Sequence record: MZ726797.1
DNA from: Escherichia phage vB_EcoS_AVIO78A
Direction: 5' to 3' (one strand)
Length of the DNA: 57,811 bases
Under the pieces are notes generated by a model that was not told the DNA's origin, ran no database searches, and worked only from the letters and a program-made list of their open reading frames with translations. Positions 3,864 through 56,702 of this stretch are shown one piece after another; the first letter of the stretch is position 1, and the number at the start of each line of letters is the position of its first letter. The position numbers and the translations under genes were made by a program.

Positions 3864-4259
3864 TTAACAGAGGTTTCGGCTGGCGTAAAACTTTGTACCG
3901 ACTGGCATACGTTCCATGTTGAGTTTTCCACGCAGGTATTTGTATGTTTCACCGGGAGAACGTAGTTCTGCGTCACACGGTCTTTCAACAATTTCACCCA
4001 CGGGATCACCTAACGCGCCTTTCCATCCTTCCCACATTGCAGTCATAGTGATAAACCAGACACTACCTAAACTGGCTTTCTTATTCTCCCAGAACCAGTC
4101 GATGAACTCTATCGACATCCCATGCTGTTTTGCAATTTCGTAACGGTCATCCACGCTTTCAACCCTCCACCCATGTTTAGCACGATTCATAGCGGTCCGT
4201 TCATCATTCGTGGTGAACAGTACGCGCCCGGATTTATGACAAATGTTCCAAGTCGTCAT
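3864..4259 (-). CDS. hypothetical protein
   Basis: ORF track. Confidence 0.5.
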   Translation of the reverse strand: MTTWNICHKSGRVLFTTNDERTAMNRAKHGWRVESVDDRYEIAKQHGMSIEFIDWFWENKKASLGSVWFITMTAMWEGWKGALGDPVGEIVERPCDAELRSPGETYKYLRGKLNMERMPVGTKFYASRNLC

Positions 4260-4311
4260 TTCGCTAATACACCAATAATGAAAATTAGCATGTAGAATAA
4301 AACATTACGGG

Positions 4312-4470
4312 TCATAATTCATAAACCTTAAAACTACCGCCTGAATAGCGATGTTTATTACACAACTTACAACGGTGTTCCTGAGTGGCGTAATTACGTT
4401 CATCACCGTGGGTAGTACGATATAAATACCATTCGTGTTTACAGAATAATCGTTTGAGAAATATCTTCAT
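4312..4470 (-). CDS. small Cys/His-containing protein (possible zinc ribbon, ~52 aa)
   Basis: ATG with strong GAGGAGGGG RBS; CxxH...CxxC spacing; below ORF-track cutoff. Confidence 0.45.
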   Translation of the reverse strand: MKIFLKRLFCKHEWYLYRTTHGDERNYATQEHRCKLCNKHRYSGGSFKVYEL

Positions 4471-41855: not shown

Positions 41856-42887
41856 TCAGTAACCGTTACCGTTGAGAAAATTCGGGGCCGGGGTGGTCAT
41901 TACCATATAACCGTTAGCGATCAGTTGTTCATCGTTCCAACCTTGCGCAATAAACTGTTCGTAAGTTGCACCACCTGCTTTTTCAGTCATTACTTTTACA
42001 GGTGCTGCCGCTGGTGTAGGCGTTGCTACAGGTGCTGCCGCTGGTGTAGGCGTTGCTACAGGTGCTGCCGCTGGTGTAGGCGTTGCTACAGGTGCTGCCG
42101 CTGGTGTAGGCGCTGCTACAGGTGCTGCCGCTGGTGTAGGCGTTGCTACAGGTGCTGCCGCTGGTGTAGGCGTTGCTACAGGTGCTGCCGCTGGTGTAGG
42201 CGTTGCTACAGGTGCTGCCGCTGGTGTAGGCGCTGCTACAGGTGCTGCCGCTGGTGTAGGCGCTGCTACAGGTGCTGCCGCTGGTGTTACGCCGATCGGA
42301 CGTGCACCTTCAGGCATTGCAGGAGCAGCACCGAACACAGATGCAGGAGCCGGACCAGAAATGATTTCTTCACCCGCATAAAGCAATTGCGCCATTTCCA
42401 TGTTGATATATACGCCAGCCTGATTACCTGTACGACCGTTTGCAACAGATGATCCGCTGATACGGTAGTAATAACCTTTTTTCGCCAGATTTTTATCAAT
42501 AACTGGCTGGTACGCTGCGTTATAAACCGGACACGCATCAATAGCCACGTTGCGTGAGAAACCAATTACCCAGTGACCAGCATAACCAGTTTTACTCGCA
42601 TGTTTCGGATCGTCACCGTTAATAATTTTCCATGCGAAAGTGGGTTGTTGTGGTTCGCCGTTCACATAGTGTGAGTTAGCCACTCGCATAATCGCCTGGA
42701 ATACCGCACCCAGTTCACCTTGTTCTTCCCACCAGTTCGCCGCTGTTTTAGGAAACGCCAGGCCAACCCACCAGTTGTGTTTTTCAGGTGCTAACGGTTT
42801 ATTTTCGTGGTCATGAGTGTTGATATCGAAAAAAGAACCGCCAACCAGACGACCAACCGGAGTTACAAAAGATTCTTTCTGTGCCAT
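41856..42887 (-). CDS. ssDNA-binding protein-like (DUF2815-like N-domain) with Pro/Ala repeat linker and conserved C-terminal motif
   Basis: VGRL...FPK pattern; PAAAPVA[TA]PT x ~9.5; C-terminal TYEQFIAQGWNDEQL. Confidence 0.5.
   Translation of the reverse strand: MAQKESFVTPVGRLVGGSFFDINTHDHENKPLAPEKHNWWVGLAFPKTAANWWEEQGELGAVFQAIMRVANSHYVNGEPQQPTFAWKIINGDDPKHASKTGYAGHWVIGFSRNVAIDACPVYNAAYQPVIDKNLAKKGYYYRISGSSVANGRTGNQAGVYINMEMAQLLYAGEEIISGPAPASVFGAAPAMPEGARPIGVTPAAAPVAAPTPAAAPVAAPTPAAAPVATPTPAAAPVATPTPAAAPVATPTPAAAPVAAPTPAAAPVATPTPAAAPVATPTPAAAPVATPTPAAAPVKVMTEKAGGATYEQFIAQGWNDEQLIANGYMVMTTPAPNFLNGNGY
41996..42288. repeat. tandem 30-bp repeat (~9.5 copies) encoding the Pro/Ala linker
   Basis: GGTGCTGCCGCTGGTGTAGGCG[T/C]TGCTACA repeated contiguously. 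Confidence 0.9.
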
Positions 42888-44048: not shown

Positions 44049-44800
44049 CAGAATGCTCCACCCATTTGTTTAACAGATTCAGCCTGACCAACAATGTTTT
44101 CAGCATCAGCCGGGGCCGCGTTAATGCGTTCAATCAGTTCGATGATAGATTTCAGTTTTACCGGGTCGTCAATCTGCATCACGTTCTGAGTTTCATACAG
44201 TCCCATGATTCGCTGACTTAATGGCGCAGCACGGTCACCCGTAATTTGTCCAAACATCTGCATCAGTGCTGACTGAAGAACCTGTGTGTTATAAACTTTA
44301 GCCGGATCCGTGGTTACAGGTTGCTCGACAGGCGCGACTGGTGCAGCCGGTGCTGCTGGTACAACTGGAGCTACCGGAGCGGCAGGAACCGCTGGAGCAG
44401 GATCAACAGGTGCTACATAACCTGGTGCAAGTTCTGCAGGTCCGGTATAACGCCCTGCTTCAACTGCTTCAGCGATAAGTTCACGTTTAACACCGTCAAC
44501 AAACGCTTCATCCAGTTTTTTCTTTTGACGCCACAGACCATCACCTTTGTTCAGGGATTTACTGTCAGTGTGGATACGCGGATCATGACGCAAACCCCAT
44601 TTGTCGAACTCTTCAGTACTGGTTTCGTTATCGTCAACATCTTCAGTTGGTGCAGATACAACAGGCAGTGATTCAGCAACGACAGAAACAATTTCTTCTT
44701 TCGTAATCGGTGCGACACTGTTACCAGCAATCGCTGCTGCCAGATTGTTGATCGCAGTTTCCAGACCCGGAGCAGTTACAAGTAATTTAACTTCGAACAT
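44048..44800 (-). CDS. hypothetical protein with Pro/Ala-rich linker
   Basis: ORF track; first gene after tandem promoters. Confidence 0.5.
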   Translation of the reverse strand: MFEVKLLVTAPGLETAINNLAAAIAGNSVAPITKEEIVSVVAESLPVVSAPTEDVDDNETSTEEFDKWGLRHDPRIHTDSKSLNKGDGLWRQKKKLDEAFVDGVKRELIAEAVEAGRYTGPAELAPGYVAPVDPAPAVPAAPVAPVVPAAPAAPVAPVEQPVTTDPAKVYNTQVLQSALMQMFGQITGDRAAPLSQRIMGLYETQNVMQIDDPVKLKSIIELIERINAAPADAENIVGQAESVKQMGGAF

Positions 44801-44832
44801 TACGTTTTCCTCTTGTTGTTTGGTTGTCGCTA

Positions 44833-44876
44833 ACTTTAAAAGGTGTTGTGCAATCTGTCAAGAATTATTTTACACT
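44833..44876 (-). promoter_or_regulatory. conserved promoter (-35 TTGACA, -10 TAAAGT), proximal of tandem pair
   Basis: motif family member. Confidence 0.6.
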
Positions 44877-44894
44877 CGCCTTTCGTTGATGCAG

Positions 44895-44939
44895 ATGTTA
44901 GAGGAATAAGTTGCAATGCGTCAAGAACTATTTTAAACT
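44895..44939 (-). promoter_or_regulatory. conserved promoter (-35 TTGACG, -10 TAACAT), distal of tandem pair
   Basis: motif family member. Confidence 0.55.
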
Positions 44940-44970
44940 TTTTTCACGATTCGATATTACAGGGTAGAAA

Positions 44971-46632
44971 ATGAAAGCTCGTTATTATCAGACTGAAGCT
45001 ATCAATAACGTATGTCAGGCATGGTCAAGCGGTGCTGACGACGTGATTCTTGTGCTTCCCACGGGGGCAGGAAAAACGTTCTGTATGTCTGAACTGGTAA
45101 AAACAAGAGACGGTGTAAAAGTCATCCAGGCACACCGTAAAGAACTGGTTAGTCAAATCGCAATGGCTGTTGCTCGCCAGGGGTTAGCACACAGATTTAT
45201 AGCGCAAAAAGATACTGTTAAGTTTGCAACTAATCAGCAGATGAAAACGCTTGGTTACAGTACCTATTCCCCCGGTGCTGACATCGTTATTACCAGTTCA
45301 CAAACGTTAAGAACAAAACAGTACGAACGATGGTACAACGACGTGTCTCTTGTGTTTAGCGACGAAGCGCATCACCTGGTGCGTGGCACACAGTGGGGAG
45401 ACTGCCGGGAAAAATTCCCTAACGCTAAAGGTCTGGGTGTTACAGCTACACCGATCCGTGCTGACGGTAAAGGCTTGGGTCGTCATGCGTCAGGTTACGC
45501 AGATCAGATGATCATTGGTCCGTCAATGCGTGAGTTAATCAGTCAACAACATCTGGCCGATTATCGTCTGATTATGGCTGAAACAGACCTGGAATTAACT
45601 GCAGAAATGATTTCCCATACAACGGGTGATTACAAACCATCTGCGTTAAAAAAAGCGATGGAAGATTCAAACATTGTTGGTGATACCGTCAGTACGTGGA
45701 AAACGTACGCAGACGGTTTGCTCACTGTTGTGTTTACGTGTGATGTGGATTCTGCTGAAGCACTGGCACAAGAATTTCGCGATGCGGGTATTCCAGCAGA
45801 GGCGATCAGCTCACGAAACAGCAATCAGGAACGAGCGGATATCCTGGAACGTTTTGAACGACGTAAAACACTCGTGCTGTGTAACAACGATTTATTCGGT
45901 GAAGGATACGATTGTCCGGCAATGGAATGTGCAGTAATGGACCGTCCCACAGAATCTTACTCTTTGTTTGTACAACAAATGGGTCGACCATTGCGTTTCA
46001 AACCGGGTAAAAAAGCACTGATTATTGATAAAGTCGGTAATGTTCGTCGATTTCTGACCCGTGGTTTTCCACTTCCCGATCAGCATTACAACTGGTCTTT
46101 AGATGACCGCGACCGTCGTTCGTCAAACAGCAGTGGGAACAGTAATACAACATGCACAAACAAGGGTGATCCTGATAACGGTATCCCACCGTGTCTGAAG
46201 CCTTATCCGTCTGGTCTTCCGTGCTGCCCGTATTGTGGTCATGTTCCTGAAAAAGCCGAACGCTCAGGCCCGGATCGTGTAGAAGGTAATTTACGTGAAC
46301 TGACACCTGAAGAACTGGAAGAATTACGCCGGGCAGTTGTGATAATCGACCGTGATCCTGTTGCAGTAAAAGAACAAATGTTAAACGCTGGTGCACCCCC
46401 TGTTGCAGCTTACAGTGCAATGAAAAACATTCAGGCAATGAACGATGCACAGCGTAAGTTACGCAGCATGATCACCACATGGGCAGGTATTCAACGTGAT
46501 AAAGGTATACCCGTTGATGACGCTTACAAGATGTTTTACAGGGTGTTTGGTGTTGATGTACTTAGTGCACAGGGCTTACGTACTCGTGAAGCTAATGAAC
46601 TCGCCGCAAGGGTTGCAAGTTCATTAATCTGA
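44971..46632 (+). CDS. superfamily 2 helicase with internal zinc ribbon
   Basis: Walker A PTGAGKT, DEAH-like FSDEAHH, CCPYCGH. Confidence 0.7.
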   Translation: MKARYYQTEAINNVCQAWSSGADDVILVLPTGAGKTFCMSELVKTRDGVKVIQAHRKELVSQIAMAVARQGLAHRFIAQKDTVKFATNQQMKTLGYSTYSPGADIVITSSQTLRTKQYERWYNDVSLVFSDEAHHLVRGTQWGDCREKFPNAKGLGVTATPIRADGKGLGRHASGYADQMIIGPSMRELISQQHLADYRLIMAETDLELTAEMISHTTGDYKPSALKKAMEDSNIVGDTVSTWKTYADGLLTVVFTCDVDSAEALAQEFRDAGIPAEAISSRNSNQERADILERFERRKTLVLCNNDLFGEGYDCPAMECAVMDRPTESYSLFVQQMGRPLRFKPGKKALIIDKVGNVRRFLTRGFPLPDQHYNWSLDDRDRRSSNSSGNSNTTCTNKGDPDNGIPPCLKPYPSGLPCCPYCGHVPEKAERSGPDRVEGNLRELTPEELEELRRAVVIIDRDPVAVKEQMLNAGAPPVAAYSAMKNIQAMNDAQRKLRSMITTWAGIQRDKGIPVDDAYKMFYRVFGVDVLSAQGLRTREANELAARVASSLI

Positions 46633-46673
46633 TGGTAATCTGCATAGAAATATTTTAAACGTAAGGAACTGTA

Positions 46674-47180
46674 ATGCGTGATTTGATGGTTGACATTGAA
46701 ACGTGTGGTACTAAACCGGGTTGTGCAGTGCTGTCAATTGGCGCTGTTTATTTTGATCGTCAGGGTAATATTGGTGAAACGTTTTACGCATCAATGGGTT
46801 TTAATGCACTTGCTTATGGTCACACGGACCCTGACACTATGAAGTGGTGGTCGCAGCAGTCAGAACAAGCACAAAAAGATGCTTTTGGTGGTACTGCCGA
46901 TCCTGTTCAGGTTGCTAAAGATTTTGCCAAATTCATCTGGCACGATGCTAAACCGTGGGGAAATGGTTGCACATTCGATATCACTATTCTGGAAGCATGG
47001 TTTAATGCTGTTGGGGTTCGTTGCCCGTGGAAGTTCTGGAATGTTCGTGATGTTCGTACAGCTGTTGATTTGCTGGGTATTAACCCGAAAGAATTTACCC
47101 GTGACGGTACTTACCACAACGCGTTAGACGACTGTTTACACCAGATTAAACATCTTACTAGTGGGACTAAAACATTATGA
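46674..47180 (+). CDS. DEDD-family 3-prime-5-prime exonuclease (DnaQ-like)
   Basis: N-terminal MVDIETCG (Exo I-like), C-terminal HNALDD. Confidence 0.6.
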   Translation: MRDLMVDIETCGTKPGCAVLSIGAVYFDRQGNIGETFYASMGFNALAYGHTDPDTMKWWSQQSEQAQKDAFGGTADPVQVAKDFAKFIWHDAKPWGNGCTFDITILEAWFNAVGVRCPWKFWNVRDVRTAVDLLGINPKEFTRDGTYHNALDDCLHQIKHLTSGTKTL

Positions 47181-47668
47181 CAACGCTTGAACAATGGGCG
47201 ATTCGTCACGGTATTAGTCAGATGGCGTTGTACGAGTTATACGCGCTTTATCAGCCTGATGGGACACCACACGAAGACGGTGTAAGTGAAAGCGCCACCA
47301 GTAAAGAGTGTGAACTGATTGCGGCACGTTCCGGGCAACGTATCTGGCGTAATAACTCAGGTGCTCTGAAAAACGAAAAAGGAATGATGGTTCGTTATGG
47401 TCTTGGTAACACCAGTGCGAAAATCAACGCTGTTATGAAGTCAAGCGACTACATCGGCATTAAAACCAAAATCGTTACACCGGATATGATCGGTTCGAAA
47501 GTGGGCATCTTTATTGCTGCCGAAATGAAACGCCCTGACTGGCACATGATCCCCAGTGATAAACGTGCACAAGCACAGGCCACTTTCGGTGCGATTGTTG
47601 AAAACGCAGGTGGTGAATTTCGTTTCATCACTCACCCTTCACAATTTGAAAAATGGATTAAACAATGA
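47177..47668 (+). CDS. VRR-NUC-type nuclease (putative)
   Basis: SDYIGI...EMK resembling a PD-(D/E)xK core. Confidence 0.45.
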   Translation: MTTLEQWAIRHGISQMALYELYALYQPDGTPHEDGVSESATSKECELIAARSGQRIWRNNSGALKNEKGMMVRYGLGNTSAKINAVMKSSDYIGIKTKIVTPDMIGSKVGIFIAAEMKRPDWHMIPSDKRAQAQATFGAIVENAGGEFRFITHPSQFEKWIKQ

Positions 47669-47838
47669 ATACTGAACGCATCGAACGTCTGCAAAAACTG
47701 ATTGATAACCACGGTATTGAAGCTGTTGCCAAACGTCTGAACGTTACTGAAATTCATGTTAAACGTAATCTGCTTACCGGGCGATCTGCTATCAACCTGG
47801 TCAAACTGATGGCTGCTGAACGTCAGTTCGGAGCGTAA
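47665..47838 (+). CDS. small helix-turn-helix protein (57 aa)
   Basis: ATGA overlap with previous stop; ends 4 nt before primase start; AVAKRLNVTEIHVKRNL. Confidence 0.5.
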   Translation: MNTERIERLQKLIDNHGIEAVAKRLNVTEIHVKRNLLTGRSAINLVKLMAAERQFGA

Positions 47839-47841
47839 ATT

Positions 47842-50196
47842 ATGAAAGGGTTACTGAACCGTAAACAGTGGGTCATGTGGCGACTTGAGACAGTCGCCGA
47901 TCGTCCAAAACCAACGAAAGTACCATACAGCCCGGTACACGGTTATAAAGCCAGTACCACTAACCCTAACGATTGGTCTGACTATCACACCGCGTTGGGT
48001 ATGGCGCAAATGTACGGTATGTCTGGTGTTGGTTTCGTATTCACAGAAAACGACCCTTATTTCTTTATCGATGTTGATAACTGTCTGGTAGATCAGGCAA
48101 CAGCTACGTGGTCACCACTGGCGCATGAATTCGTAAACCGTTTTCCAAATGCTTACACTGAAGTCAGTCAGTCAGGAACAGGTTTGCATATCATCTGTGC
48201 TTATACCAGCATACCGGAAGGTTTTAACAGTCTGAACGACCAGAAAACCGGGCTGGAAATGTACTGGCGTGATCGTTTCGTCGCGATGACGCTCACGGGT
48301 AATGGTGATGTTGATATTGATTATACCCAGGGTATTCATGATTCTATTGCCCGGTATGGTCGTATCCGTTCAGACCGTTCCGCACGCTGGACAACAGCAC
48401 CCTGTGATGACTGGTCAGGTCCGGCAGACGATGATGAACTGATTAAAATGGCGTTAAATTCGTCCAGTGCTGCTTCAGTATTTGGTAATAAAGCGTCATT
48501 TGCAGATCTGTGGAATGCAAACGTTGAACGCCTGTCTGTGTCATATCCCAGCGACCAGGGAAAAGACTACAATGCATCTGCCGCTGATGCTGCCCTGTGC
48601 TCACACCTTGCGTTCTGGACCGGGAAAGATTGCGAACGCATTGAACGGTTGTTTAACCGTTCCGGGCTGGTTCGTGGTAAATGGACAGACCGTCAGGATT
48701 ACCGTGAGAATACGATTCTGGGCGCTGTGGAACGTTGCGATACTGTTTATCGTAGTCAACCGACGCTGACACCAGAACTGATGAAAGCAGTCACACCAGC
48801 GCCTGCCATCGTTCCTAACGGTGGAACACCTGCGTACATGAGTGTGAAACCCGGTGAAGGTGCATATGGTTCAAACCATACGGTTAACGCATCCACGTTC
48901 GTTAATAACTATTATCCGAACAACACATTGATTTTTGTCCAGCAACAGCCGTACCGGTTCAACGGTCGTGTGTGGGAACGTGTCAGTGAAGATGAATTGA
49001 AACATCAGATATCCATGGCAATGCTTGCCAGCGAACCAAAAGCTGACGTGATTAATGGTACGTACAAGGTTTTGTCGTATTTATTCACACGCGCTGATCG
49101 TGAGCTTGGAACATGGCCCGGCGTTGATGTATCACACTATATTGTTTGTCAGAACGGGATACTGGATGTACATACGGGTAAATGTGATGCACATAACCCG
49201 GATTTCTTTACGACCAGTATTTTACCGTATAGCTACGACCCGTTTGCTCGCGCACCAGCGTTTGAACAGTTTTTAAATACAACTCTGGAAGGTGATCAGG
49301 AACGTATTGCACTGTTGCAGGAATGGCTGGGTTATATGCTTGTCAACTCGTATGACTATCAGAAAGCGATGCTGTTGATTGGTGCGCCACGTTCCGGTAA
49401 AGGTACGATCGGTCGTATTATTCAGGCACTGGTAGGTGACGAAGCATATGCAGGGATCACACTGGAGGGTTTAGCAAGTGATGCGGTACTTGAAACTGTG
49501 CTGGATAAATCTGTGCTGTTTATTGGTGATGCTCACAGTGTGTCCGGGCCTGATCGCAACCGAATTCTGGACCGTTTCAAATCTATTACAGGTTGTGATG
49601 CGATTCCGGTTAATCGTAAGTATAAAGGTGCATGGAACGGTCGTTTACCTGGACGTATGACACTGGCTGCTAACAACATCCCGGCATTTGCTGATGATTC
49701 CGGTGCAATGGCTAACCGTTTGCTGATCCTACCGTTCAACATTTCGTTCCTGGGTCGTGAAGATACTACTCTGGAAGCACGACTGATGAAAGAACTACCG
49801 GGGATCTGTAACTGGGCGATTGAAGGTTTGCAACGGTTACGTGCAAACGGACGGTTTACTGAACCAAAAGCAAGTCTGGAAGAACGTCAGGAAATTATGG
49901 ATCAACAATCACCACTTAGAAGTTTTATCAGAGATTGTTGCGAATTGGTATCTGATGGTGAGGTGCACACTGAAGAACTCTATGGTCGTTATCGTCTCTG
50001 GAAAACACAGGAAGGTGGTCCAGCAATGACTAAAACTGCATTTAGTCGGGCGTTTAAATCCACCCTTCGTGGTAAAGTGAAAAAAGACGTCGTTAATATA
50101 AATAACGTTCGACTAAACGGTTTCAGGGGTATTCGTCTTCTCCCTTTTCAGTCAACAGCTAACGTAGTGCCTTTCCCACCTGCGAGTAACGGTTAG
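47842..50196 (+). CDS. primase-helicase (primase/polymerase-like N-domain fused to P4/D5-type helicase)
   Basis: 784 aa; Walker A GAPRSGKGT in C-terminal half; N-terminal FIDVDN acidic motif. Confidence 0.7.
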   Translation: MKGLLNRKQWVMWRLETVADRPKPTKVPYSPVHGYKASTTNPNDWSDYHTALGMAQMYGMSGVGFVFTENDPYFFIDVDNCLVDQATATWSPLAHEFVNRFPNAYTEVSQSGTGLHIICAYTSIPEGFNSLNDQKTGLEMYWRDRFVAMTLTGNGDVDIDYTQGIHDSIARYGRIRSDRSARWTTAPCDDWSGPADDDELIKMALNSSSAASVFGNKASFADLWNANVERLSVSYPSDQGKDYNASAADAALCSHLAFWTGKDCERIERLFNRSGLVRGKWTDRQDYRENTILGAVERCDTVYRSQPTLTPELMKAVTPAPAIVPNGGTPAYMSVKPGEGAYGSNHTVNASTFVNNYYPNNTLIFVQQQPYRFNGRVWERVSEDELKHQISMAMLASEPKADVINGTYKVLSYLFTRADRELGTWPGVDVSHYIVCQNGILDVHTGKCDAHNPDFFTTSILPYSYDPFARAPAFEQFLNTTLEGDQERIALLQEWLGYMLVNSYDYQKAMLLIGAPRSGKGTIGRIIQALVGDEAYAGITLEGLASDAVLETVLDKSVLFIGDAHSVSGPDRNRILDRFKSITGCDAIPVNRKYKGAWNGRLPGRMTLAANNIPAFADDSGAMANRLLILPFNISFLGREDTTLEARLMKELPGICNWAIEGLQRLRANGRFTEPKASLEERQEIMDQQSPLRSFIRDCCELVSDGEVHTEELYGRYRLWKTQEGGPAMTKTAFSRAFKSTLRGKVKKDVVNINNVRLNGFRGIRLLPFQSTANVVPFPPASNG

Positions 50197-50210
50197 TCAT
50201 TGCACAAGGA

Positions 50211-50255
50211 TGTGTAAAATAATTCTTGACGAATTACAGATGTGTACGCTATAGT
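50211..50255 (+). promoter_or_regulatory. conserved promoter, rightward (-35 TTGACG, -10 TATAGT)
   Basis: motif family member; followed by AAGGAG RBS and ATG 50287. Confidence 0.6.
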
Positions 50256-50286
50256 CTGTACATCAAGTGAACAAGGAGTGATTGTT

Positions 50287-50499
50287 ATGAAACCACGCTA
50301 CCGATTAATGAGACTTTCACAGTGTCCTAACGGAACACGGTTTTATTTTTATCGTCTGAAGCAACTATTACCTTTCACGTTAATTGCTAACAGTTTCAAG
50401 AAACACGAAAGTATTTATCACGAGGGTCATGATTTTAATATAACCGCGCGAAAATACAGAACGTCTATTCATAAACTTGTGTGGGCTAAGGTGAACTAA
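50287..50499 (+). CDS. hypothetical protein
   Basis: ORF 50242..50499 trimmed to ATG 50287. Confidence 0.45.
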   Translation: MKPRYRLMRLSQCPNGTRFYFYRLKQLLPFTLIANSFKKHESIYHEGHDFNITARKYRTSIHKLVWAKVN

Positions 50500-50501
50500 T
50501 T

Positions 50502-50741
50502 ATGGGTGGTCGTGGGTCATGTCGTCGAACTCGTTCGTTACGTTGTAGCAAATGTTATGAGCGAAATCTACGTGACTATCTTTTAGGATACGGTGCTCGT
50601 AACTGGGAAAACGTTGAAGTTACTGGTGAAAATGGAAACACTTACACCTGCCGTTGTGAATCCTGTGGTCACACTTATCAAACAACATCAGCGGCTGCAC
50701 GTCGCGAATGGAAGTGGAAGAAAAACCATGTTAATAACTAG
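50502..50741 (+). CDS. zinc-finger protein
   Basis: CSKC...CRCESCGH. Confidence 0.45.
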   Translation: MGGRGSCRRTRSLRCSKCYERNLRDYLLGYGARNWENVEVTGENGNTYTCRCESCGHTYQTTSAAARREWKWKKNHVNN

Positions 50742-50973
50742 TATTTTCATACTTGTATTTTGGATAATCATCGTTATACGTATAATTATTTGTGCTGTCA
50801 TACAAAGAAAAATGATTGATTTTTATTATTCTGATGAAAGTGGTTGGGACACACATCAACAGAGCATTTTTGATGCTTACCCACAATTAGATACTTTCAA
50901 AATGATTTTTAAATTCTGGGTATGGCCTATGTCAAAATTCTATCCTGAATACAGGAAAGGTAAAAAACCATGA
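50728..50973 (+). CDS. small membrane protein
   Basis: ORF 50593..50973 trimmed to ATG 50728; hydrophobic N-terminus. Confidence 0.4.
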   Translation: MLITSIFILVFWIIIVIRIIICAVIQRKMIDFYYSDESGWDTHQQSIFDAYPQLDTFKMIFKFWVWPMSKFYPEYRKGKKP

Positions 50974-51167
50974 AAAACATATTTGACCGTTTAATTACTG
51001 CTATTGTTTTCCTTGTATCCGTAACGCTCGCGTCTTGCATTGTCGGACTAATGACCCGTGGTAATCATGCGGAAACACCGTGGTGGTTTCTGGCAGGTCT
51101 TGGATTATTAGCGGCTGCTGCATCAATTGGCGCTTGCATGTGGGGAGTGAAAAACGATCATGACTGA
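50970..51167 (+). CDS. small membrane protein (2 TM)
   Basis: ORF track. Confidence 0.45.
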   Translation: MKNIFDRLITAIVFLVSVTLASCIVGLMTRGNHAETPWWFLAGLGLLAAAASIGACMWGVKNDHD

Positions 51168-51375
51168 GTTCGGTGCTGTAATCAAAAAAGAAGACCGTTA
51201 TGCACATATTGATACCCGGATTACCTGGGTTGATATCAGTGAAGCTACCCTGTTCAGTTCAACTTACATGGCTGGAGTTGCACTTAAAGCACTTCGCGAT
51301 CAGGGTTTCAATTGTAAAAAAGTAACAATCGCGCCTGTTAAAATCACACGAATTGTCGAGGAGACAGAAGGATGA
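51160..51375 (+). CDS. hypothetical protein
   Basis: ORF track. Confidence 0.4.
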   Translation: MTEFGAVIKKEDRYAHIDTRITWVDISEATLFSSTYMAGVALKALRDQGFNCKKVTIAPVKITRIVEETEG

Positions 51376-51767
51376 TAATAGTCGTCACTGGTGGTCGTGA
51401 CTTCAACGACAGAACAGCAGTGTTTTCCGCGTTAGGACTACTTCACAAACAATTTCCGATTACCGAACTAATCGAAGGTGGTGCGTCAGGTGTTGATAAC
51501 CTGTGTAAGCAGTGGGCGCAATTACACGGTATTCCTGTGCGTAGTTGCCCGGCAGCATGGGACGATCTGACTGTACCGGGTGTGGTTGTAAAACAAGGTA
51601 AGTACGGGCCTTATAACGCTGTTGCAGGTCATCAACGCAATCAGGCAATGTTAGAGGGTGAACCACGGCCTACATACGGTGTTGTGTTCCCCGGTGGGCG
51701 AGGTACTGCTGATATGCACCGTCGCATGTTGAAAGCTGGTTTAACTGTGTGGGTTCCGTATGGTTGA
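51372..51767 (+). CDS. SLOG-superfamily (DUF2493/LOG-like) nucleotide-binding protein
   Basis: MIIVVTGGRDF, GGASGVD, FPGGRGT Rossmann-like motifs. Confidence 0.5.
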   Translation: MIIVVTGGRDFNDRTAVFSALGLLHKQFPITELIEGGASGVDNLCKQWAQLHGIPVRSCPAAWDDLTVPGVVVKQGKYGPYNAVAGHQRNQAMLEGEPRPTYGVVFPGGRGTADMHRRMLKAGLTVWVPYG

Positions 51768-52182
51768 TAGTTTCAGTGGTGAATATCGTTGGTTAAGTAA
51801 TTTTTGGCCTGTACCTGTCAACTATGATGGGTACGTTTTTAAAACGGTGGAACATGCTTATCAAGCGCTGAAATGTAAATATTATAATGACTTTCTGGAG
51901 GTTAAAAACTGTGACACACCCGGTCAGGCTAAACGTCTTGCACGTCAAAAAATCATGCGTGACGACTGGGAACAAATTAAAACTCAGGTGATGTTTTATC
52001 TTCTGCAGCAGAAATTTTCTAACCCTAAAATGTGGGCTTTACTCGTTGCCACAGGTGATCAACCAATCGTTGAAGGTAACGAGTGGGGTGATACATTCTG
52101 GGGTGTTTGCAGTGGTAAAGGTGAAAATCATTTAGGTAAAATGATAATGGCTATTCGCGCCGGATATCAAACTTACCTTTAA
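51760..52182 (+). CDS. NADAR-domain protein (YbiA-like)
   Basis: WLSNFW near N-terminus, EHAYQALK, FWGVC - pattern typical of NADAR/DUF1768. Confidence 0.55.
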   Translation: MVDSFSGEYRWLSNFWPVPVNYDGYVFKTVEHAYQALKCKYYNDFLEVKNCDTPGQAKRLARQKIMRDDWEQIKTQVMFYLLQQKFSNPKMWALLVATGDQPIVEGNEWGDTFWGVCSGKGENHLGKMIMAIRAGYQTYL

Positions 52183-52219
52183 AATAGTTCTTGACAGATT
52201 ACCAACCCTCCCCGATAAT
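52176..52219 (+). promoter_or_regulatory. conserved promoter, rightward (-35 TTGACA, 17 bp, -10 GATAAT)
   Basis: best sigma70 match of the family. Confidence 0.65.
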
Positions 52220-52220
52220 T

Positions 52221-52245
52221 AGCCTCAGTTAACACACATGAGGCT
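52221..52245 (+). promoter_or_regulatory. inverted-repeat element AGCCTCA-N11-TGAGGCT at the predicted transcription start, inverted copy of the 16159 hairpin; candidate operator or 5-prime UTR hairpin
   Basis: direct reading. Confidence 0.45.
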
Positions 52246-52253
52246 AAACACAA

Positions 52254-53021
52254 ATGGCTAACATTAACTCCATTCGCAAGCTGTCTGATACCGATAAAAC
52301 CAACGTAAAACGTGGTAACGCATATCGCATTGATCCGCGTATTATCAAGATTCGTCCAGGACATAACCCACGGGGTGTGTTTACCGACAACTACTGGGAA
52401 ACTGAAGCAGCACTGGCACACATTGAAAACTTTCGTCAGGCTTATACCAATGGCGATTTCGTTCCACCCATCGTGGTACAGGTTGTTGACGGTGTTCCGT
52501 ATGTTCAGGATGGTGAGCATCGTTTACGTGGTGTATTGGCAGCTATTAAAGCCGGGACGCCGATTCTGACAGTAGATGTTGTTGAATCATCTGGTGATGA
52601 ACTACAACAGACCCTGACACTGTTAAAAGGTAATGAAGGTAAACCGTGGTCACCTGTTGAACGTGCTGTTATTTACGGTCGTTTCCGTTCATATGGCATG
52701 AGTGTTGAGCAGATCGCTACACAGGTTGGTAAAACCGTCCAACACGTTTACGAACAACTGAATATTCTTGATATGCCGCTGGAACTTAAACGCCGTATCC
52801 AGAACGGTGAAATCAGCGCATCAGCAGCCATTCGTCAGTTTAAAGCAGGTGATAAAGAACCAGTAGTCACGCGTCGTCCGCCTGCTAAACTGGTACGGTC
52901 TGCAGTGGAAGCAATCCGTGGTGAATGGTCTGTAACCCGTTCGGAAGGTGGTAAAGTCCTGGTTGAACTTACCGCTGAACAGTTTGAAGCGTTAAAAGCA
53001 CTGAAGGAGCACCAGTTATGA
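52254..53021 (+). CDS. ParB-like nuclease-domain protein
   Basis: DGEHRLRG motif typical of ParB/Srx N-terminal domain. Confidence 0.55.
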   Translation: MANINSIRKLSDTDKTNVKRGNAYRIDPRIIKIRPGHNPRGVFTDNYWETEAALAHIENFRQAYTNGDFVPPIVVQVVDGVPYVQDGEHRLRGVLAAIKAGTPILTVDVVESSGDELQQTLTLLKGNEGKPWSPVERAVIYGRFRSYGMSVEQIATQVGKTVQHVYEQLNILDMPLELKRRIQNGEISASAAIRQFKAGDKEPVVTRRPPAKLVRSAVEAIRGEWSVTRSEGGKVLVELTAEQFEALKALKEHQL

Positions 53022-53209
53022 AAAACCGCAAGGCAAAGATTCTGTTAGTTCGTAGAAACGCTCCCGGCGTCTGGCAGTGGGTGAGACTCAGCAACAGACG
53101 GATGGGGTTGATGAAACATTACGGGATGATGGATTGTGGTTTTTGCAAAAAGCCCAGCGCGGCGCAAAACCGCTGGAAAAACCACTGTCGCATTAATAAG
53201 GAAAACTGA
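53018..53209 (+). CDS. small basic protein
   Basis: ORF track; ATGA overlap. Confidence 0.4.
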   Translation: MKNRKAKILLVRRNAPGVWQWVRLSNRRMGLMKHYGMMDCGFCKKPSAAQNRWKNHCRINKEN

Positions 53210-53210
53210 T

Positions 53211-53474
53211 ATGGCAACTTTGACAAAAAAAGAACGGGCATGGTTGAACGAATTACAGGACGTTCTTGATCGCTGCCCATCACCGAAAAAAATTGGTTTT
53301 TACACCATTGGCGATAAAAGCATTTACCTGTATGACCTGCGCCGCATGGATGAAATCATGGAGGCTCTTGATAATCGTTCGTCAATGGATTGGTGTGTTG
53401 CTGTTCATGATATGAATGCCGGATTTGATGAAAAGATTTTATTCCCCTCATCAGTTGAAAGTACAGCAGGATAA
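53211..53474 (+). CDS. hypothetical protein
   Basis: ORF 53136..53474 trimmed to ATG 53211 with AAGGA RBS. Confidence 0.45.
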   Translation: MATLTKKERAWLNELQDVLDRCPSPKKIGFYTIGDKSIYLYDLRRMDEIMEALDNRSSMDWCVAVHDMNAGFDEKILFPSSVESTAG

Positions 53475-53484
53475 GGACTAACAC

Positions 53485-53898
53485 ATGACCACTATTACCA
53501 AAGAGCGACTGCTGACAATCAGGCAGTGGCGCGAAACATACGGACCTGGTAGCAACGTTGTACTGCCAGCAGAAGAAGCGGAAGAACTGGCACGAATTGC
53601 TCTGGCATCGCTGGAAGCAGAGCCGATAGGTTTCCGTTGCAGGCGCAATGATAACCTTGGTGATTGGAGTTACGTATATCATCGAGAGCCAGATGATTTT
53701 GAGCGCAAACATTTAGTGATAGAGGGCATTTACGCCGCCCCTCCAGCACCGGTAGTGCCTGAAGAAGCAACTCCGGAAAACGTAGAAATGCTCTCTGGCT
53801 ATGTTTCAACGTACAAATTAACCGATAGCGAGCGCGATATTGCTGCCGAAATATGGAACGCCTGCCGCGCCGCCATGATTCAGGGAAAAGGAGAGTGA
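53485..53898 (+). CDS. hypothetical protein
   Basis: ORF track. Confidence 0.5.
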   Translation: MTTITKERLLTIRQWRETYGPGSNVVLPAEEAEELARIALASLEAEPIGFRCRRNDNLGDWSYVYHREPDDFERKHLVIEGIYAAPPAPVVPEEATPENVEMLSGYVSTYKLTDSERDIAAEIWNACRAAMIQGKGE

Positions 53899-53928
53899 TA
53901 TGACCACTATAACCGGGAGTAAAAAGAA

Positions 53929-54192
53929 ATGACTAAAATATACGTTACAAAATATGCGTTAACAACTGGTGTTTTCAGTGTAGATGCTAAAATAAAATCA
54001 GATGGTACAAGTGCAACTTTCGACGACAAAAGAAACATGCCACAGTTTGTTTATGGTAGAGATTTTTGGTTGACACCGGAAGAGGCTTTTATTGATTGCG
54101 AGCGTCGTCGAATAAACAAATTAAAATCTCTGGAGAAACAGAAACAACAAATCGAAAGTTTAAACTTTCAACTTATTAAGGAACGTTTATGA
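53929..54192 (+). CDS. hypothetical protein
   Basis: ORF track. Confidence 0.45.
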   Translation: MTKIYVTKYALTTGVFSVDAKIKSDGTSATFDDKRNMPQFVYGRDFWLTPEEAFIDCERRRINKLKSLEKQKQQIESLNFQLIKERL

Positions 54193-54413
54193 CTATCCGA
54201 CTGATGAATCCAACCGTTGCCCGTGATATTAAACCGGGTGACAAGATTGAAGTATTTAACGAGTGGTACTGGGTACGTTATATCAATTACCACGGGTCAC
54301 AGATTACGCTTCGTTTACAGCCGGAAGAGGAACCGCTATCACCATTTTGCGAAAACGACCGCGTTGTGGTGACAGTGCCAGAAGATCTAATGATTGATGT
54401 CGAGGTGCGTTAA
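54189..54413 (+). CDS. hypothetical protein
   Basis: ORF track. Confidence 0.45.
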   Translation: MTIRLMNPTVARDIKPGDKIEVFNEWYWVRYINYHGSQITLRLQPEEEPLSPFCENDRVVVTVPEDLMIDVEVR

Positions 54414-54665
54414 ATGACTGTATATGAAATGGAAGGTTTTCTTCGTGGTAAATGTGTTCCGGGCGACCTGAAAGTTAACGAAACAAACGCTGAATATCTG
54501 GTACGTAAGTTAACACTTGTGGATCAACAACTGGAAGCACTGGATAAACTAGCAGGTCAATTTCTACAATTATCAATGGAACGTGGCGGTCGTGTTTCAA
54601 CCGCGTATGCTGAGTGTGCTGATTTGTTGGCTAGAACTGTTCGCGACATAAGGAAAAACACATGA
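54414..54665 (+). CDS. hypothetical protein
   Basis: ORF track. Confidence 0.45.
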   Translation: MTVYEMEGFLRGKCVPGDLKVNETNAEYLVRKLTLVDQQLEALDKLAGQFLQLSMERGGRVSTAYAECADLLARTVRDIRKNT

Positions 54666-54868
54666 ATACTAACGATTATTTATATCTTGTATTAGTTCCA
54701 ATTGCTGAGGTATTCAGATCACGTTTTCCGAAGGGTTCTGCGCCTTTTAGTGCTATTCGTAACAATAAAACCTGTCGCGTTAAATTTACAAGCAAACGGC
54801 TTGAAAAAGAATGGCAGGAATTTTGTAAAAATAACGAATTGAAAAATGATCCAAAACTGGAATACTAA
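54662..54868 (+). CDS. hypothetical protein
   Basis: ORF track. Confidence 0.45.
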   Translation: MNTNDYLYLVLVPIAEVFRSRFPKGSAPFSAIRNNKTCRVKFTSKRLEKEWQEFCKNNELKNDPKLEY

Positions 54869-55112
54869 CAGGTTCCCTCGTAACGGTTTGAAGTGGTCCG
54901 CACGAGATTTGGCGTTATTAAAAATTAATGCAGGAAAGATCAGTGCGGACGAAATAGCGTATTACCTTCGCCGGGACGTTGAAGCGGTGCACATTAAAGC
55001 GTCACGTCTCGGTATATCACTGGTAACCAATAAATGTAAACGTGGTCATGCGCGAGTTTACCAAAAAGGTAGATGGCGCTGTCCTGAGTGTAGAAAATTA
55101 AAAGGGTATTGA
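54846..55112 (+). CDS. putative DNA-binding protein (HTH-like segment plus C-terminal zinc ribbon)
   Basis: ISADEIAYYLRRDVEAVHIKASRLG; CxxC...CPEC. Confidence 0.4.
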   Translation: MIQNWNTNRFPRNGLKWSARDLALLKINAGKISADEIAYYLRRDVEAVHIKASRLGISLVTNKCKRGHARVYQKGRWRCPECRKLKGY

Positions 55113-55408
55113 AGATGAGCACTAAAGAAATTGTTAAAGCACTTGAAACTGGTGACTGGTCTAATGTGTCTGTTGGTAACAAAGCGATCATTCAGGCGGC
55201 TATTAATGAATTAAAATCATTAAGTGAAAGTCGTTTATCACTAGCTCAAAACGCACTGGAAATGTGCAATGAAGTCTTTTGTGCTGGTTATCATGAGTCA
55301 ATGATATATAAAGGAATGATGGAAAGTACAGGTAATCGTAATAAATTCCCACACCCCATAAAAACTGTTATTGAAACTGCTATACAGGTGATCGCTGATG
55401 AAAATTAA
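55109..55408 (+). CDS. hypothetical protein
   Basis: ORF track. Confidence 0.45.
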   Translation: MKMSTKEIVKALETGDWSNVSVGNKAIIQAAINELKSLSESRLSLAQNALEMCNEVFCAGYHESMIYKGMMESTGNRNKFPHPIKTVIETAIQVIADEN

Positions 55409-55631
55409 AAACATGGCTGCAAGTGGTCTGTCAGGCCGTATCTTTTACGGTACGATGGAAACAAAAGACGGTGGTCAGTCTGGTAAATGGTTAGCAGGAA
55501 AGCAAGACGTTACTGATATGGCGATCCGTGCAGTTGCTGAACATTGTCATCTGACAGGAAACGAATATTCATTTACGCTTAACGACGGTCGTGTGATTAC
55601 ACTGGCAGTAACAGAGGTACAACCATCATGA
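55398..55631 (+). CDS. hypothetical protein
   Basis: ORF track. Confidence 0.45.
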   Translation: MKIKNMAASGLSGRIFYGTMETKDGGQSGKWLAGKQDVTDMAIRAVAEHCHLTGNEYSFTLNDGRVITLAVTEVQPS

Positions 55632-56197
55632 CACCTGAACAATTCGCAACAGCAGCACACGGTGATCAACTTCGTAAGTACACCAACGACCCATATGTGA
55701 ACCACTGCCGGAACGTTGCTGAACTGGTTAAACGCTATGGTGGTACGCCGGATATGGTTACCGCTGCCTGGCTACATGACGTCGTTGAAGATACGCCCGT
55801 GACTGTGGGTGATGTGTGTTCGCAATTCGGTGAAACTGTGGCACGTTATGTTGATCAGCTTACTGATGTGAGTCGTCCACACCACGGCAACCGCGTTAAA
55901 CGTAAAGCACGGGATATCGACCATTTATCACTGGTTGAACCTGTGGTGAAAACTATAAAACTGTGTGATCTACTGGATAACACATCTTCAATTGTCCGAC
56001 ACGATCCGAAGTTTGCTGTAACATACCTGGCTGAAAAACAACTCATGCTTGCTCACCTGTCAGACGCAAGCAACCAGGAGCTATACGCGCTTGTTGAGCG
56101 TGAATTGTTCAAAGCCAAATACAAACTAACGAATGTCCAGTTGACCGCGTTTGACAAACACTACGACGCACTGGTTAAAGCGATGGGGGAGTTGTGA
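55628..56197 (+). CDS. HD-domain phosphohydrolase (RelA/SpoT-type hydrolase fold; possible (p)ppGpp or signalling-nucleotide hydrolase)
   Basis: HGDQLRKYTNDPYVNHCRNVA...AAWLHDVVEDT matches the HD motif pattern. Confidence 0.6.
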   Translation: MTPEQFATAAHGDQLRKYTNDPYVNHCRNVAELVKRYGGTPDMVTAAWLHDVVEDTPVTVGDVCSQFGETVARYVDQLTDVSRPHHGNRVKRKARDIDHLSLVEPVVKTIKLCDLLDNTSSIVRHDPKFAVTYLAEKQLMLAHLSDASNQELYALVERELFKAKYKLTNVQLTAFDKHYDALVKAMGEL

Positions 56198-56409
56198 TTA
56201 TGAATAAAGCGTCGCCTGTAGAAATACGCAAGTGTCTTGAAATGGCAAACAGTCTTGCACACGCAGGGATTAGATTTGTCCCTGTACCGGTAACCAGTGA
56301 TGATGAATTTAATTCGCTGGTTTCTCATTCTTACGGGATACTGGACAAAATAGCAGACGATTGTGACACCACCAACCGCCAGTTCGAAAGCCTGGCTAAT
56401 CATGAATAA
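56194..56409 (+). CDS. hypothetical protein
   Basis: ORF track. Confidence 0.45.
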   Translation: MIMNKASPVEIRKCLEMANSLAHAGIRFVPVPVTSDDEFNSLVSHSYGILDKIADDCDTTNRQFESLANHE

Positions 56410-56472
56410 CTACCTGTTCATACTATTCATCAGTGCGCTCTATGTGGCGCACGTTTTCTATGAGGTGTACCG

Positions 56473-56667
56473 ATGAAGAATCATGATGCAACGAAACTCG
56501 ATCAAGCGTTTTTGATTAACAAATTCTATGAGCGTTATCCGCTTTCTGAATTTAAAAATGATTCCGAAAGAGCAGACGCACTAGGTTATTTCATGGCAGG
56601 TGCTGAATTACAACGATTGGGTCATTTTATCGAATACAATGACAAGGATGATAGCGACGAATACTAA
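56473..56667 (+). CDS. hypothetical acidic protein
   Basis: ORF track. Confidence 0.45.
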   Translation: MKNHDATKLDQAFLINKFYERYPLSEFKNDSERADALGYFMAGAELQRLGHFIEYNDKDDSDEY

Positions 56668-56668
56668 C

Positions 56669-56702
56669 AAAAAAAGCGGGGTAATTATCCCCGCTATCTT
56701 TA
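56669..56702. terminator. bidirectional terminator between convergent genes
   Basis: AGCGGGGTAATTATCCCCGCT hairpin flanked by A-run and T-rich tract. Confidence 0.6.

Follow-up and report, generated by a model that had tools for sequence, protein, structure and literature searches.

NADAR enzymes of phages were recently proven to counter DarTG1, a toxin-antitoxin defense that ADP-ribosylates DNA (PMC11257639). The NADAR of phage Bas32 neutralizes DarT1 and rescues DarTG1-sensitive phages, and the Bas32 and Bas60 NADARs act alone under ectopic expression (PMC11257639). Escherichia coli YbiA and T4 gp30.3 cut guanine-ADP-ribose in vitro, with no rescue of DarT1 toxicity in cells (PMC11125620). 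Viral SLOG/YAcAr fusions and neighborhoods with NADAR and Macro domains have been described computationally (Iyer, Burroughs, Anantharaman, Aravind 2022, PMC9503650), a 2021 survey of jumbo phages also describes such SLOG/YAcAr combinations (Iyer et al. 2021, PMC7824862), and the viral SLOG domains, most of which fall in the YpsA-like clade, have been predicted to help degrade signals of the cyclic ADP-ribose (cADPR) type (PMC9503650). Here, we analyzed the complete 57,811-nucleotide (nt) stretch of DNA from Escherichia phage vB_EcoS_AVIO78A (MZ726797.1; hereafter, the window), a Sashavirus (9NA-like siphovirus of E. coli and Salmonella), in which a SLOG gene overlaps a NADAR gene:

51372..51767, + strand: SLOG gene; 131 amino acids (aa), stand-alone, YAcAr/DUF2493 family, YpsA-like clade
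51760..52182, + strand: NADAR gene; minimal, 140 aa, with the YbiA-type catalytic Glu and no N-terminal extension; accessory cassette
51760..51767, + strand: start/stop overlap of SLOG and NADAR, ATGGTTGA; 8 bp, read from the sequence

We lean toward reading this locus as the known viral YAcAr-SLOG/NADAR combination for ADP-ribose processing, here split into two genes and carried in an accessory slot, with a NADAR of the anti-DarT1 type and a SLOG protein that would act on a related ligand. The window shares both domain families and the order SLOG then NADAR with the published viral combinations (PMC7824862, PMC9503650). It differs from them in that a small (58-kb) siphovirus encodes the domains in two overlapping genes, where large or jumbo phages have a single polypeptide, and in that the NADAR half is demonstrably dispensable in this lineage. 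The original prediction, made from the sequence before any database search, had correctly picked out two adjacent overlapping genes of these families: the overlap is 8 bp, both proteins score far above the Pfam cut-offs (PF08719, 81.1 bits versus 35.1, E 1.4e-22; PF10686, 71.4 bits versus 28.2), and both folds were detected in confident structure models. It had also held that the pairing was not a described system, whereas both surveys report it, together with the same functional prediction. The pairing is confirmed as real but optional, and it had already been described computationally. The 8-bp start/stop overlap suggests that SLOG and NADAR are translationally coupled.

In addition to its Pfam match, the NADAR protein matched phrog_1017 and passed the NCBIfam model TIGR02464 (riboflavin biosynthesis intermediates N-glycosidase; 79.9 bits versus a cut-off of 73.7). 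Among solved structures, it matched 2b3w (E 2.5e-17) and 8bau (E 8e-6) at the sequence level. Its AlphaFold2 model (predicted local distance difference test score, 95.1) has a YbiA-like alpha+beta fold, with Foldseek template-modeling (TM) scores of 0.82 to 2b3w and 0.77 to 8bau. We mapped its residues by alignment to the Phytophthora NADAR (8bau, PnNADAR), taking residue roles from Schuller et al. 2023. The catalytic Glu and phosphate-binding Lys, which are E43 and K50 in PnNADAR and E88 and K95 in E. coli C7 (PMC11543638), correspond to E31 and K38 of the window protein. R62, W70, E105, D111, and W114 align with PnNADAR R79, W89, E125, D130, and W133, and K74 aligns with R93. Seven of the eight ADP-ribose-contact or catalytic residues (Schuller 2023) are therefore identical, and the remaining one (R93 to K74) is a conservative change. 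Six of these positions, E31, K38, W70, E105, D111, and W114, are invariant across 39 NADAR homologs. Alignment and model together show an enzyme that is predicted to be intact and that falls in one phage clade with the Bas32 NADAR.

Using BLASTP, we found that the window NADAR is 40% identical across its whole length to bas32_0066 (E 2e-39, 140 of 149 aa aligned, 117 bits), the sole NADAR-family match in the genome of the T5-like phage Bas32; its phmmer score against E. coli YbiA was lower (66 bits). Like the orphan NADARs of phages (T4 gp30.3, named AdfN; Bas32; Bas60; PMC11257639), it is a stand-alone protein of ~140-150 aa encoded by an accessory gene with a patchy distribution, and it shares with the Bas32 protein, likewise minimal at ~149 aa, the block EGNxWGDTxWGVCxGxGxNxLG and the catalytic E/K residues. 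It differs from the orphan NADARs tested so far in its apparent translational coupling to a SLOG gene, which has not been reported for those examples; in the T5-like relative UTK0009, unlike in the window, NADAR lies among nucleotide-metabolism genes. We rejected membership in the T4-type AdfN group (gp30.3, PF08010): the window protein has Glu105 where the T4 type has His at the PnNADAR E125 position, and it has no PF08010 match.

The fold and the ADP-ribose-binding residues are also shared with DarG1 of the DarT1-NADAR systems (Schuller et al. 2023, PMC11543638), and the same guanine-ADP-ribose glycohydrolase chemistry is expected for the window NADAR. In contrast to DarG1, the window NADAR has no adjacent DarT and lacks the basic N-terminal extension that is proposed to bind single-stranded DNA (ssDNA); the core alignment of the 140-aa protein begins at residue 4-8. 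It also carries Glu105 where DarT1-associated NADARs have a catalytic Asp (E. coli C7 D171). A DarT-NADAR toxin-antitoxin system was rejected, as the neighbors are SLOG, a 71-aa open reading frame (ORF), and a ParB-like gene, and no ADP-ribosyltransferase (ART) domain was found among them. Because YbiA and gp30.3 cut guanine-ADP-ribose in vitro but fail to rescue DarT1 toxicity in cells, specificity and activity in vivo cannot be read from fold or sequence. Overall, the window NADAR is most likely an AdfN-like DNA ADP-ribosylglycohydrolase directed against toxins of the DarT1 type, a role that its cassette-like, patchy distribution fits.

Comparison with relatives placed this cassette precisely. 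Sashavirus relatives are homologous to the window up to 51760/51761, the NADAR start, and again from 52178/52179, the NADAR stop. In Bas82, PDP46, and the metagenomic contig L009, SLOG occurs alone, with the promoter candidate described below immediately 3' of its stop codon, and its C-terminus (…VPYP*) is made of the last codons of the window NADAR, which looks like a clean in-frame deletion of 417 bp. Sasha and L008 carry SLOG-HNH; in the Klebsiella-phage relatives KP13-27, L010, and L013, the arrangement is SLOG-NADAR-HNH and the ATGGTTGA junction is unchanged; and both SLOG and NADAR are missing from the locus in phage 9NA. In KP13-27 (L004, OP617744, ~3889-4317), NADAR codon 11 is changed from TGG to the nonsense codon TAG, which explains its annotation as a 113-aa, N-terminally truncated "ybiA N-glycosidase"; this NADAR is likely a decaying gene.

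The whole interval from the gp73-like gene to parB (window 50970-52253), compared with L001-L004, L008-L010, and L170, is a hypervariable accessory hot spot, as relatives differ in their SLOG/NADAR/HNH arrangement. The contents of the slot vary among a Dcm methyltransferase, small ORFs, SLOG, NADAR, and HNH, and losses are precise and in-frame, while its flanks are ~94-96% identical among Sashavirus members. Within the slot, SLOG is the most stable element and NADAR is optional: SLOG was kept at the same position in all Sashavirus and Klebsiella-phage relatives examined. The alignments show NADAR to be an exchangeable cassette that was precisely deleted in relatives, with SLOG kept either way. 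Breakpoints located exactly at the start and stop of the gene give a cassette pattern typical of patchy counter-defense genes.

The confident model of the SLOG protein matches the expected SLOG Rossmannoid fold. The GxD/E substrate signature of the YpsA clade is present as G40-V41-D42, with no variation at G40 and conservation of D42 at 90% or more. In the alignment of homologs, G7-G8-R9, G36/G40/D42, R89-N90, and P107-G108-G109-x-G111-T112-x-D114 are invariant or nearly so. R89 lies within an HQRN motif, which we take to resemble the MHxRK motif of LOG proteins. The residues of the ligand pocket are thus intact, which argues for binding of a phosphate-bearing ligand. SLOG may or may not be an N-glycosidase, given that the LOG catalytic Glu is not conserved: where LOG proteins read PGGxGTxxE, SLOG reads PGGRGTADM, with Met115 at the site of the Glu and the conserved Asp114 one position earlier. 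A separate feature of the Sashavirus and Klebsiella-phage proteins is an insertion of ~15 residues within residues 61-84, predicted as a beta-hairpin (strands 73-76 and 79-82), that is absent from most homologs of 114-116 aa.

For SLOG, we found no sequence-level match to superfamily members of known role (LOG/PpnN, DprA, YpsA, or the SLOG domain of ThsA), and the structural resemblance to ThsA was no stronger than that to LOG, DprA, or YpsA. Sequence and profile searches against solved structures gave nothing significant (the best match was a putative Mo-carrier SLOG, E 0.06). The protein matched no Pfam LOG or DprA family (no PF02481), no NCBIfam model, and no PADLOC entry. Identification as DprA was rejected, given the missing PF02481 match and the single 131-aa domain without extensions. 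Our literature search found no experimental work on phage YAcAr/DUF2493 proteins or on SLOG anti-defense; YAcAr/DUF2493 is mentioned there only as a fusion to the SF1B helicase HelB of ICP1 and to DciA. Among the matches to a YAcAr-NADAR fusion query, we also saw YAcAr fused to Toprim_2 with DUF3991, to DUF4326, to an R2K ATP-grasp domain, and to an LDcluster4 SLOG domain (P0339, P0340, P0347, and P0358), which shows that YAcAr is a promiscuous accessory domain. One set of its associations is with ADP-ribose enzymes (NADAR, Macro, DUF4326) and the other is with replication proteins (helicases, DciA, and Toprim, plus ParB and ligase neighbors).

To quantify how often the two domains occur together, we sampled 80 SLOG-anchored and 80 NADAR-anchored viral loci and counted a partner within 6 kb. 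In six of the 80 NADAR-anchored loci (NADAR identity to the query, 43-56%), a YAcAr SLOG gene lies on the strand of NADAR at a distance of 17 bp to 3 kb. The same overlapping pair was found in three diverged lineages. The 8-bp overlap ATGGTTGA is identical in the Klebsiella-type loci L004 and L010. The distant 9NA-like contig L005 has the pair at 60-67% identity with an 8-bp overlap, ATGGCTGA, between an HD_4 gene and an Nmad5 (nucleotide modification associated domain 5) gene, the latter directly 3' of the pair (L005 6474-7130). In an unrelated 150-kb contig (L120), SLOG is followed by NADAR with a 4-bp overlap, at 35-47% identity, and then by a DNA ligase gene. A 360-kb contig (L050) encodes a single 321-aa YAcAr-NADAR fusion polypeptide, and a search with this fusion recovered 91 protein clusters that carry both PF10686 and PF08719 in one polypeptide of ~255-290 aa, down to ~40% identity. 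Such fusions are classic evidence of one shared pathway. The best 120 database homologs of each window protein are single-domain proteins, and the neighborhoods of three fusion-family members, in which almost no gene is annotated, favor neither a role on DNA nor one on small molecules. Collectively, these results show that, in unrelated phages, SLOG and NADAR repeatedly lie side by side, are coupled in translation, or form one fusion protein.

In the split-combination reading that we favor, NADAR would hydrolyze the N-glycosidic bond that links ADP-ribose to guanine in phage ssDNA that has been modified by DarT1-type host toxins, and removal of the ADP-ribose would restore replication in an AdfN-like manner. 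SLOG would act in the same pathway by binding, and possibly processing, a ligand that is a nucleotide or contains ADP-ribose. It may recognize DNA at the replisome that is ADP-ribosylated or single-stranded, or it may handle released ADP-ribose or related signals. Where NADAR is present, the two proteins would be made together and cooperate; where it is absent, SLOG would keep its own function. The original prediction that the pair erases a host defense modification or signal is reasonable for NADAR, given its likeness to bas32_0066. For SLOG, erasure of a nucleotide signal is only one option, because its other fusions and neighbors are replication proteins.

Several results weigh against this reading. 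The window NADAR has the YbiA-type Glu and passes TIGR02464, and neither YbiA nor gp30.3 rescued cells from DarT1 (PMC11125620). SLOG stays when NADAR is deleted, and only 3 of the 80 SLOG-anchored loci have NADAR nearby, 2 of which belong to the window's own lineage, leaving 77 without it. SLOG neighbors are very heterogeneous (357 clusters among 478 genes) with no dominant partner; helicase, ParB, nuclease, Dcm, a sigma-like protein, and HNH are the commonest. The fusions of YAcAr to helicase, DciA, and Toprim suggest that its ligand is perhaps not an ADP-ribose derivative. Finally, the six SLOG genes near NADAR compare with ~0.30 expected (~20-fold, Poisson P ~8e-7), but this background is a rough, database-wide density taken from a different database and ignores the regional clustering of accessory genes. 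As an obligate module, the pair does not hold up: relatives keep SLOG without NADAR, 9NA lacks both, and a partner occurs at 3 of 80 and 6 of 80 loci. An obligate two-gene operon was likewise rejected on the precise NADAR deletions in the closest relatives.

Much of this evidence would also suit two independent neighbors, with NADAR a self-sufficient AdfN-like anti-DarT1 cassette that settled in an accessory hot spot and SLOG a nucleotide- or ssDNA-binding protein that serves replication (DprA-like or helicase-accessory) and has no connection to ADP-ribose. The deletions leave the SLOG ORF intact in Bas82, PDP46, Sasha, L008, and L009, the Bas32 and Bas60 NADARs work alone, the slot is hypervariable, and both the scarcity of NADAR at SLOG-anchored loci and the replication-type neighbors and fusions of DUF2493 (HelB, DciA, Toprim) point the same way. 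However, the 91 clusters of single-polypeptide fusions, the start/stop overlap in three diverged lineages, and the enrichment of SLOG near NADAR, always on the same strand, are at odds with independence, and we regard it as the main rival, possible but unlikely. A different extension keeps the proteins together and makes SLOG the DNA-facing or second-step partner of NADAR, which would detect ssDNA or ADP-ribosylated DNA at the replisome and bring extension-less NADARs to their substrate, or would cleave or sequester a second ADP-ribose-derived molecule. This proposal would explain why YAcAr is fused to both ADP-ribose enzymes and replication proteins, and we infer that ADP-ribosylated ssDNA at the replisome could reconcile the two sets of associations and suit minimal NADARs that lack a DNA-binding extension; as a specific claim, it is rather unlikely.

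A role of the pair in degrading or sequestering small ADP-ribose-derived immune signals or toxins (e.g., the cADPR isomers of Thoeris) and not DNA adducts, with SLOG as sensor, sponge, or N-glycosidase and NADAR cutting a second bond, has been predicted in print for combinations of viral SLOG, NADAR, and Macro domains (PMC9503650) and is in keeping with the intact GxD/E motif. Yet all phage NADARs tested so far act on guanine-ADP-ribose in DNA, the literature searched contains no SLOG sponge or hydrolase, SLOG has no PADLOC match, and its resemblance to ThsA does not stand out, which makes this role quite improbable. It is very improbable that NADAR is instead a YbiA-like N-glycosidase that clears reactive intermediates of the riboflavin pathway or other ribosylamines, so that the pair would have no defense role. 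E. coli YbiA (PDB 2b3w; COG3236/DUF1768 N-glycosidase) is indeed the closest solved structure (TM 0.82, 35% identity), and the two proteins share the Glu at the catalytic position (E105) and the TIGR02464 match. In contrast to YbiA, however, the window NADAR occupies a phage accessory slot, not a LexA-controlled dinG-ybiB operon or a riboflavin gene fusion, and it is nearer in sequence to the Bas32 NADAR. The genes of the surrounding block include no riboflavin-pathway (ribA/ribD), GTP-cyclohydrolase, or dinG-ybiB genes, and on this lack of pathway context we rejected a riboflavin role; the gene is moreover a dispensable cassette in a lytic phage, and YbiA itself cuts guanine-ADP-ribose in vitro (PMC11125620). 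Least probable of all is that the two proteins serve a pathway of the phage itself for modifying nucleotides or DNA. In relatives, the cassettes nearby do encode Dcm methyltransferases, an Nmad5 protein, and an HD_4 hydrolase, but the window phage has no Dcm or Nmad5 gene at the locus, and no modification enzyme co-varies with the pair.

The locus extends the anti-DarTG1 NADAR enzyme type to Sasha-like siphoviruses. YAcAr/DUF2493 SLOG proteins are encoded by hundreds of phage genomes and are uncharacterized, and they are fused to NADAR in ~90 protein clusters. The main value of the locus is a natural allelic series for testing the SLOG partner: SLOG alone, SLOG-NADAR, SLOG-HNH, SLOG-NADAR-HNH, and neither gene. 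Combined with the ~94-96% identical flanks among Sashavirus members, this series makes a convenient system for testing the function of YAcAr/DUF2493 SLOG proteins and their cooperation with NADAR. If SLOG were a DNA-facing or second-step partner, it would represent a new class of phage counter-defense or DNA-repair factor, and if it acted on a second ADP-ribose-derived molecule, protection would be wider than DarTG1. If SLOG is only a neighbor, the finding reduces to one more AdfN-like cassette.

We then considered the surroundings of the pair. With a 1.4-kb query, the best DNA matches were Bas82, PDP46, Sasha, Sergei, and Solent (93-95% identity, each with at most 70% query coverage). A search of 5,426 complete E. 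coli genomes did not return the pair, and therefore no prophage or host origin was found. Domain and phrog annotation place it in a replication/recombination block, with helicase, exonuclease, endonuclease, and NrS-1-like primase-polymerase genes on its 5' side and genes for a ParB-like protein and a SpoT-like HD hydrolase on its 3' side; a divergent block nearby encodes a DNA polymerase, a Gp2.5-like single-stranded DNA-binding protein, and an exonuclease. The original assignment of the pair to an early block is a fair guess. Two promoter-like sites flank the region:

50226..50255, + strand: candidate upstream promoter, TTGACG, 18 nt, TATAGT; 10 of 12 consensus positions, 3' of the primase gene
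52191..52219, + strand: sigma-70-like promoter candidate, TTGACA, 17 nt, GATAAT; 11 of 12 consensus positions

The site at 52191-52219 is the best sigma-70 consensus match in 44500-57811. It lies directly 3' of the NADAR stop codon, forms the 3' boundary of the variable slot, and is kept beside the slot in Sasha, Bas82, and L009 regardless of slot content. It probably drives the ParB-like gene. The upstream site is a weak candidate and a possible start of a transcription unit that ends with SLOG-NADAR. In the promoter and terminator scan, the total of promoter-like matches in the region did not exceed that of shuffled sequences, and only the 11-of-12 site stands out. Directly 3' of that site and 5' of the ParB-like gene, we observed a perfect 9-nt inverted repeat (52219-52247; TTAGCCTCA, 11 nt, TGAGGCTAA) that has a single copy in the window and is also present in Sasha, Bas82, and L009. 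Possible functions are those of an operator, a parS-like site, or a hairpin in the 5' untranslated region.

Elsewhere in the window, the SpoT/RelA-type HD hydrolase gene (55628-56197, + strand) matched PF13328 (HD_4), the N-terminal region of TIGR00691, and phrog_990, and may encode a phage alarmone hydrolase; in L005, its homolog lies directly 5' of the SLOG-NADAR pair. Two tandem repeats were also observed within genes on the - strand. A 30-bp unit repeated 9.7 times at 98% identity (41997-42287) lies inside ORF 41856-42887, which encodes the Gp2.5-like ssDNA-binding/annealing protein, and specifies a 10-residue tandem peptide. A perfect 21-bp repeat of 4.6 copies (56826-56921) lies inside ORF 56700-57482 (phrog_25538, unknown function), whose Sasha homolog is annotated with a "direct tandem repeat region."

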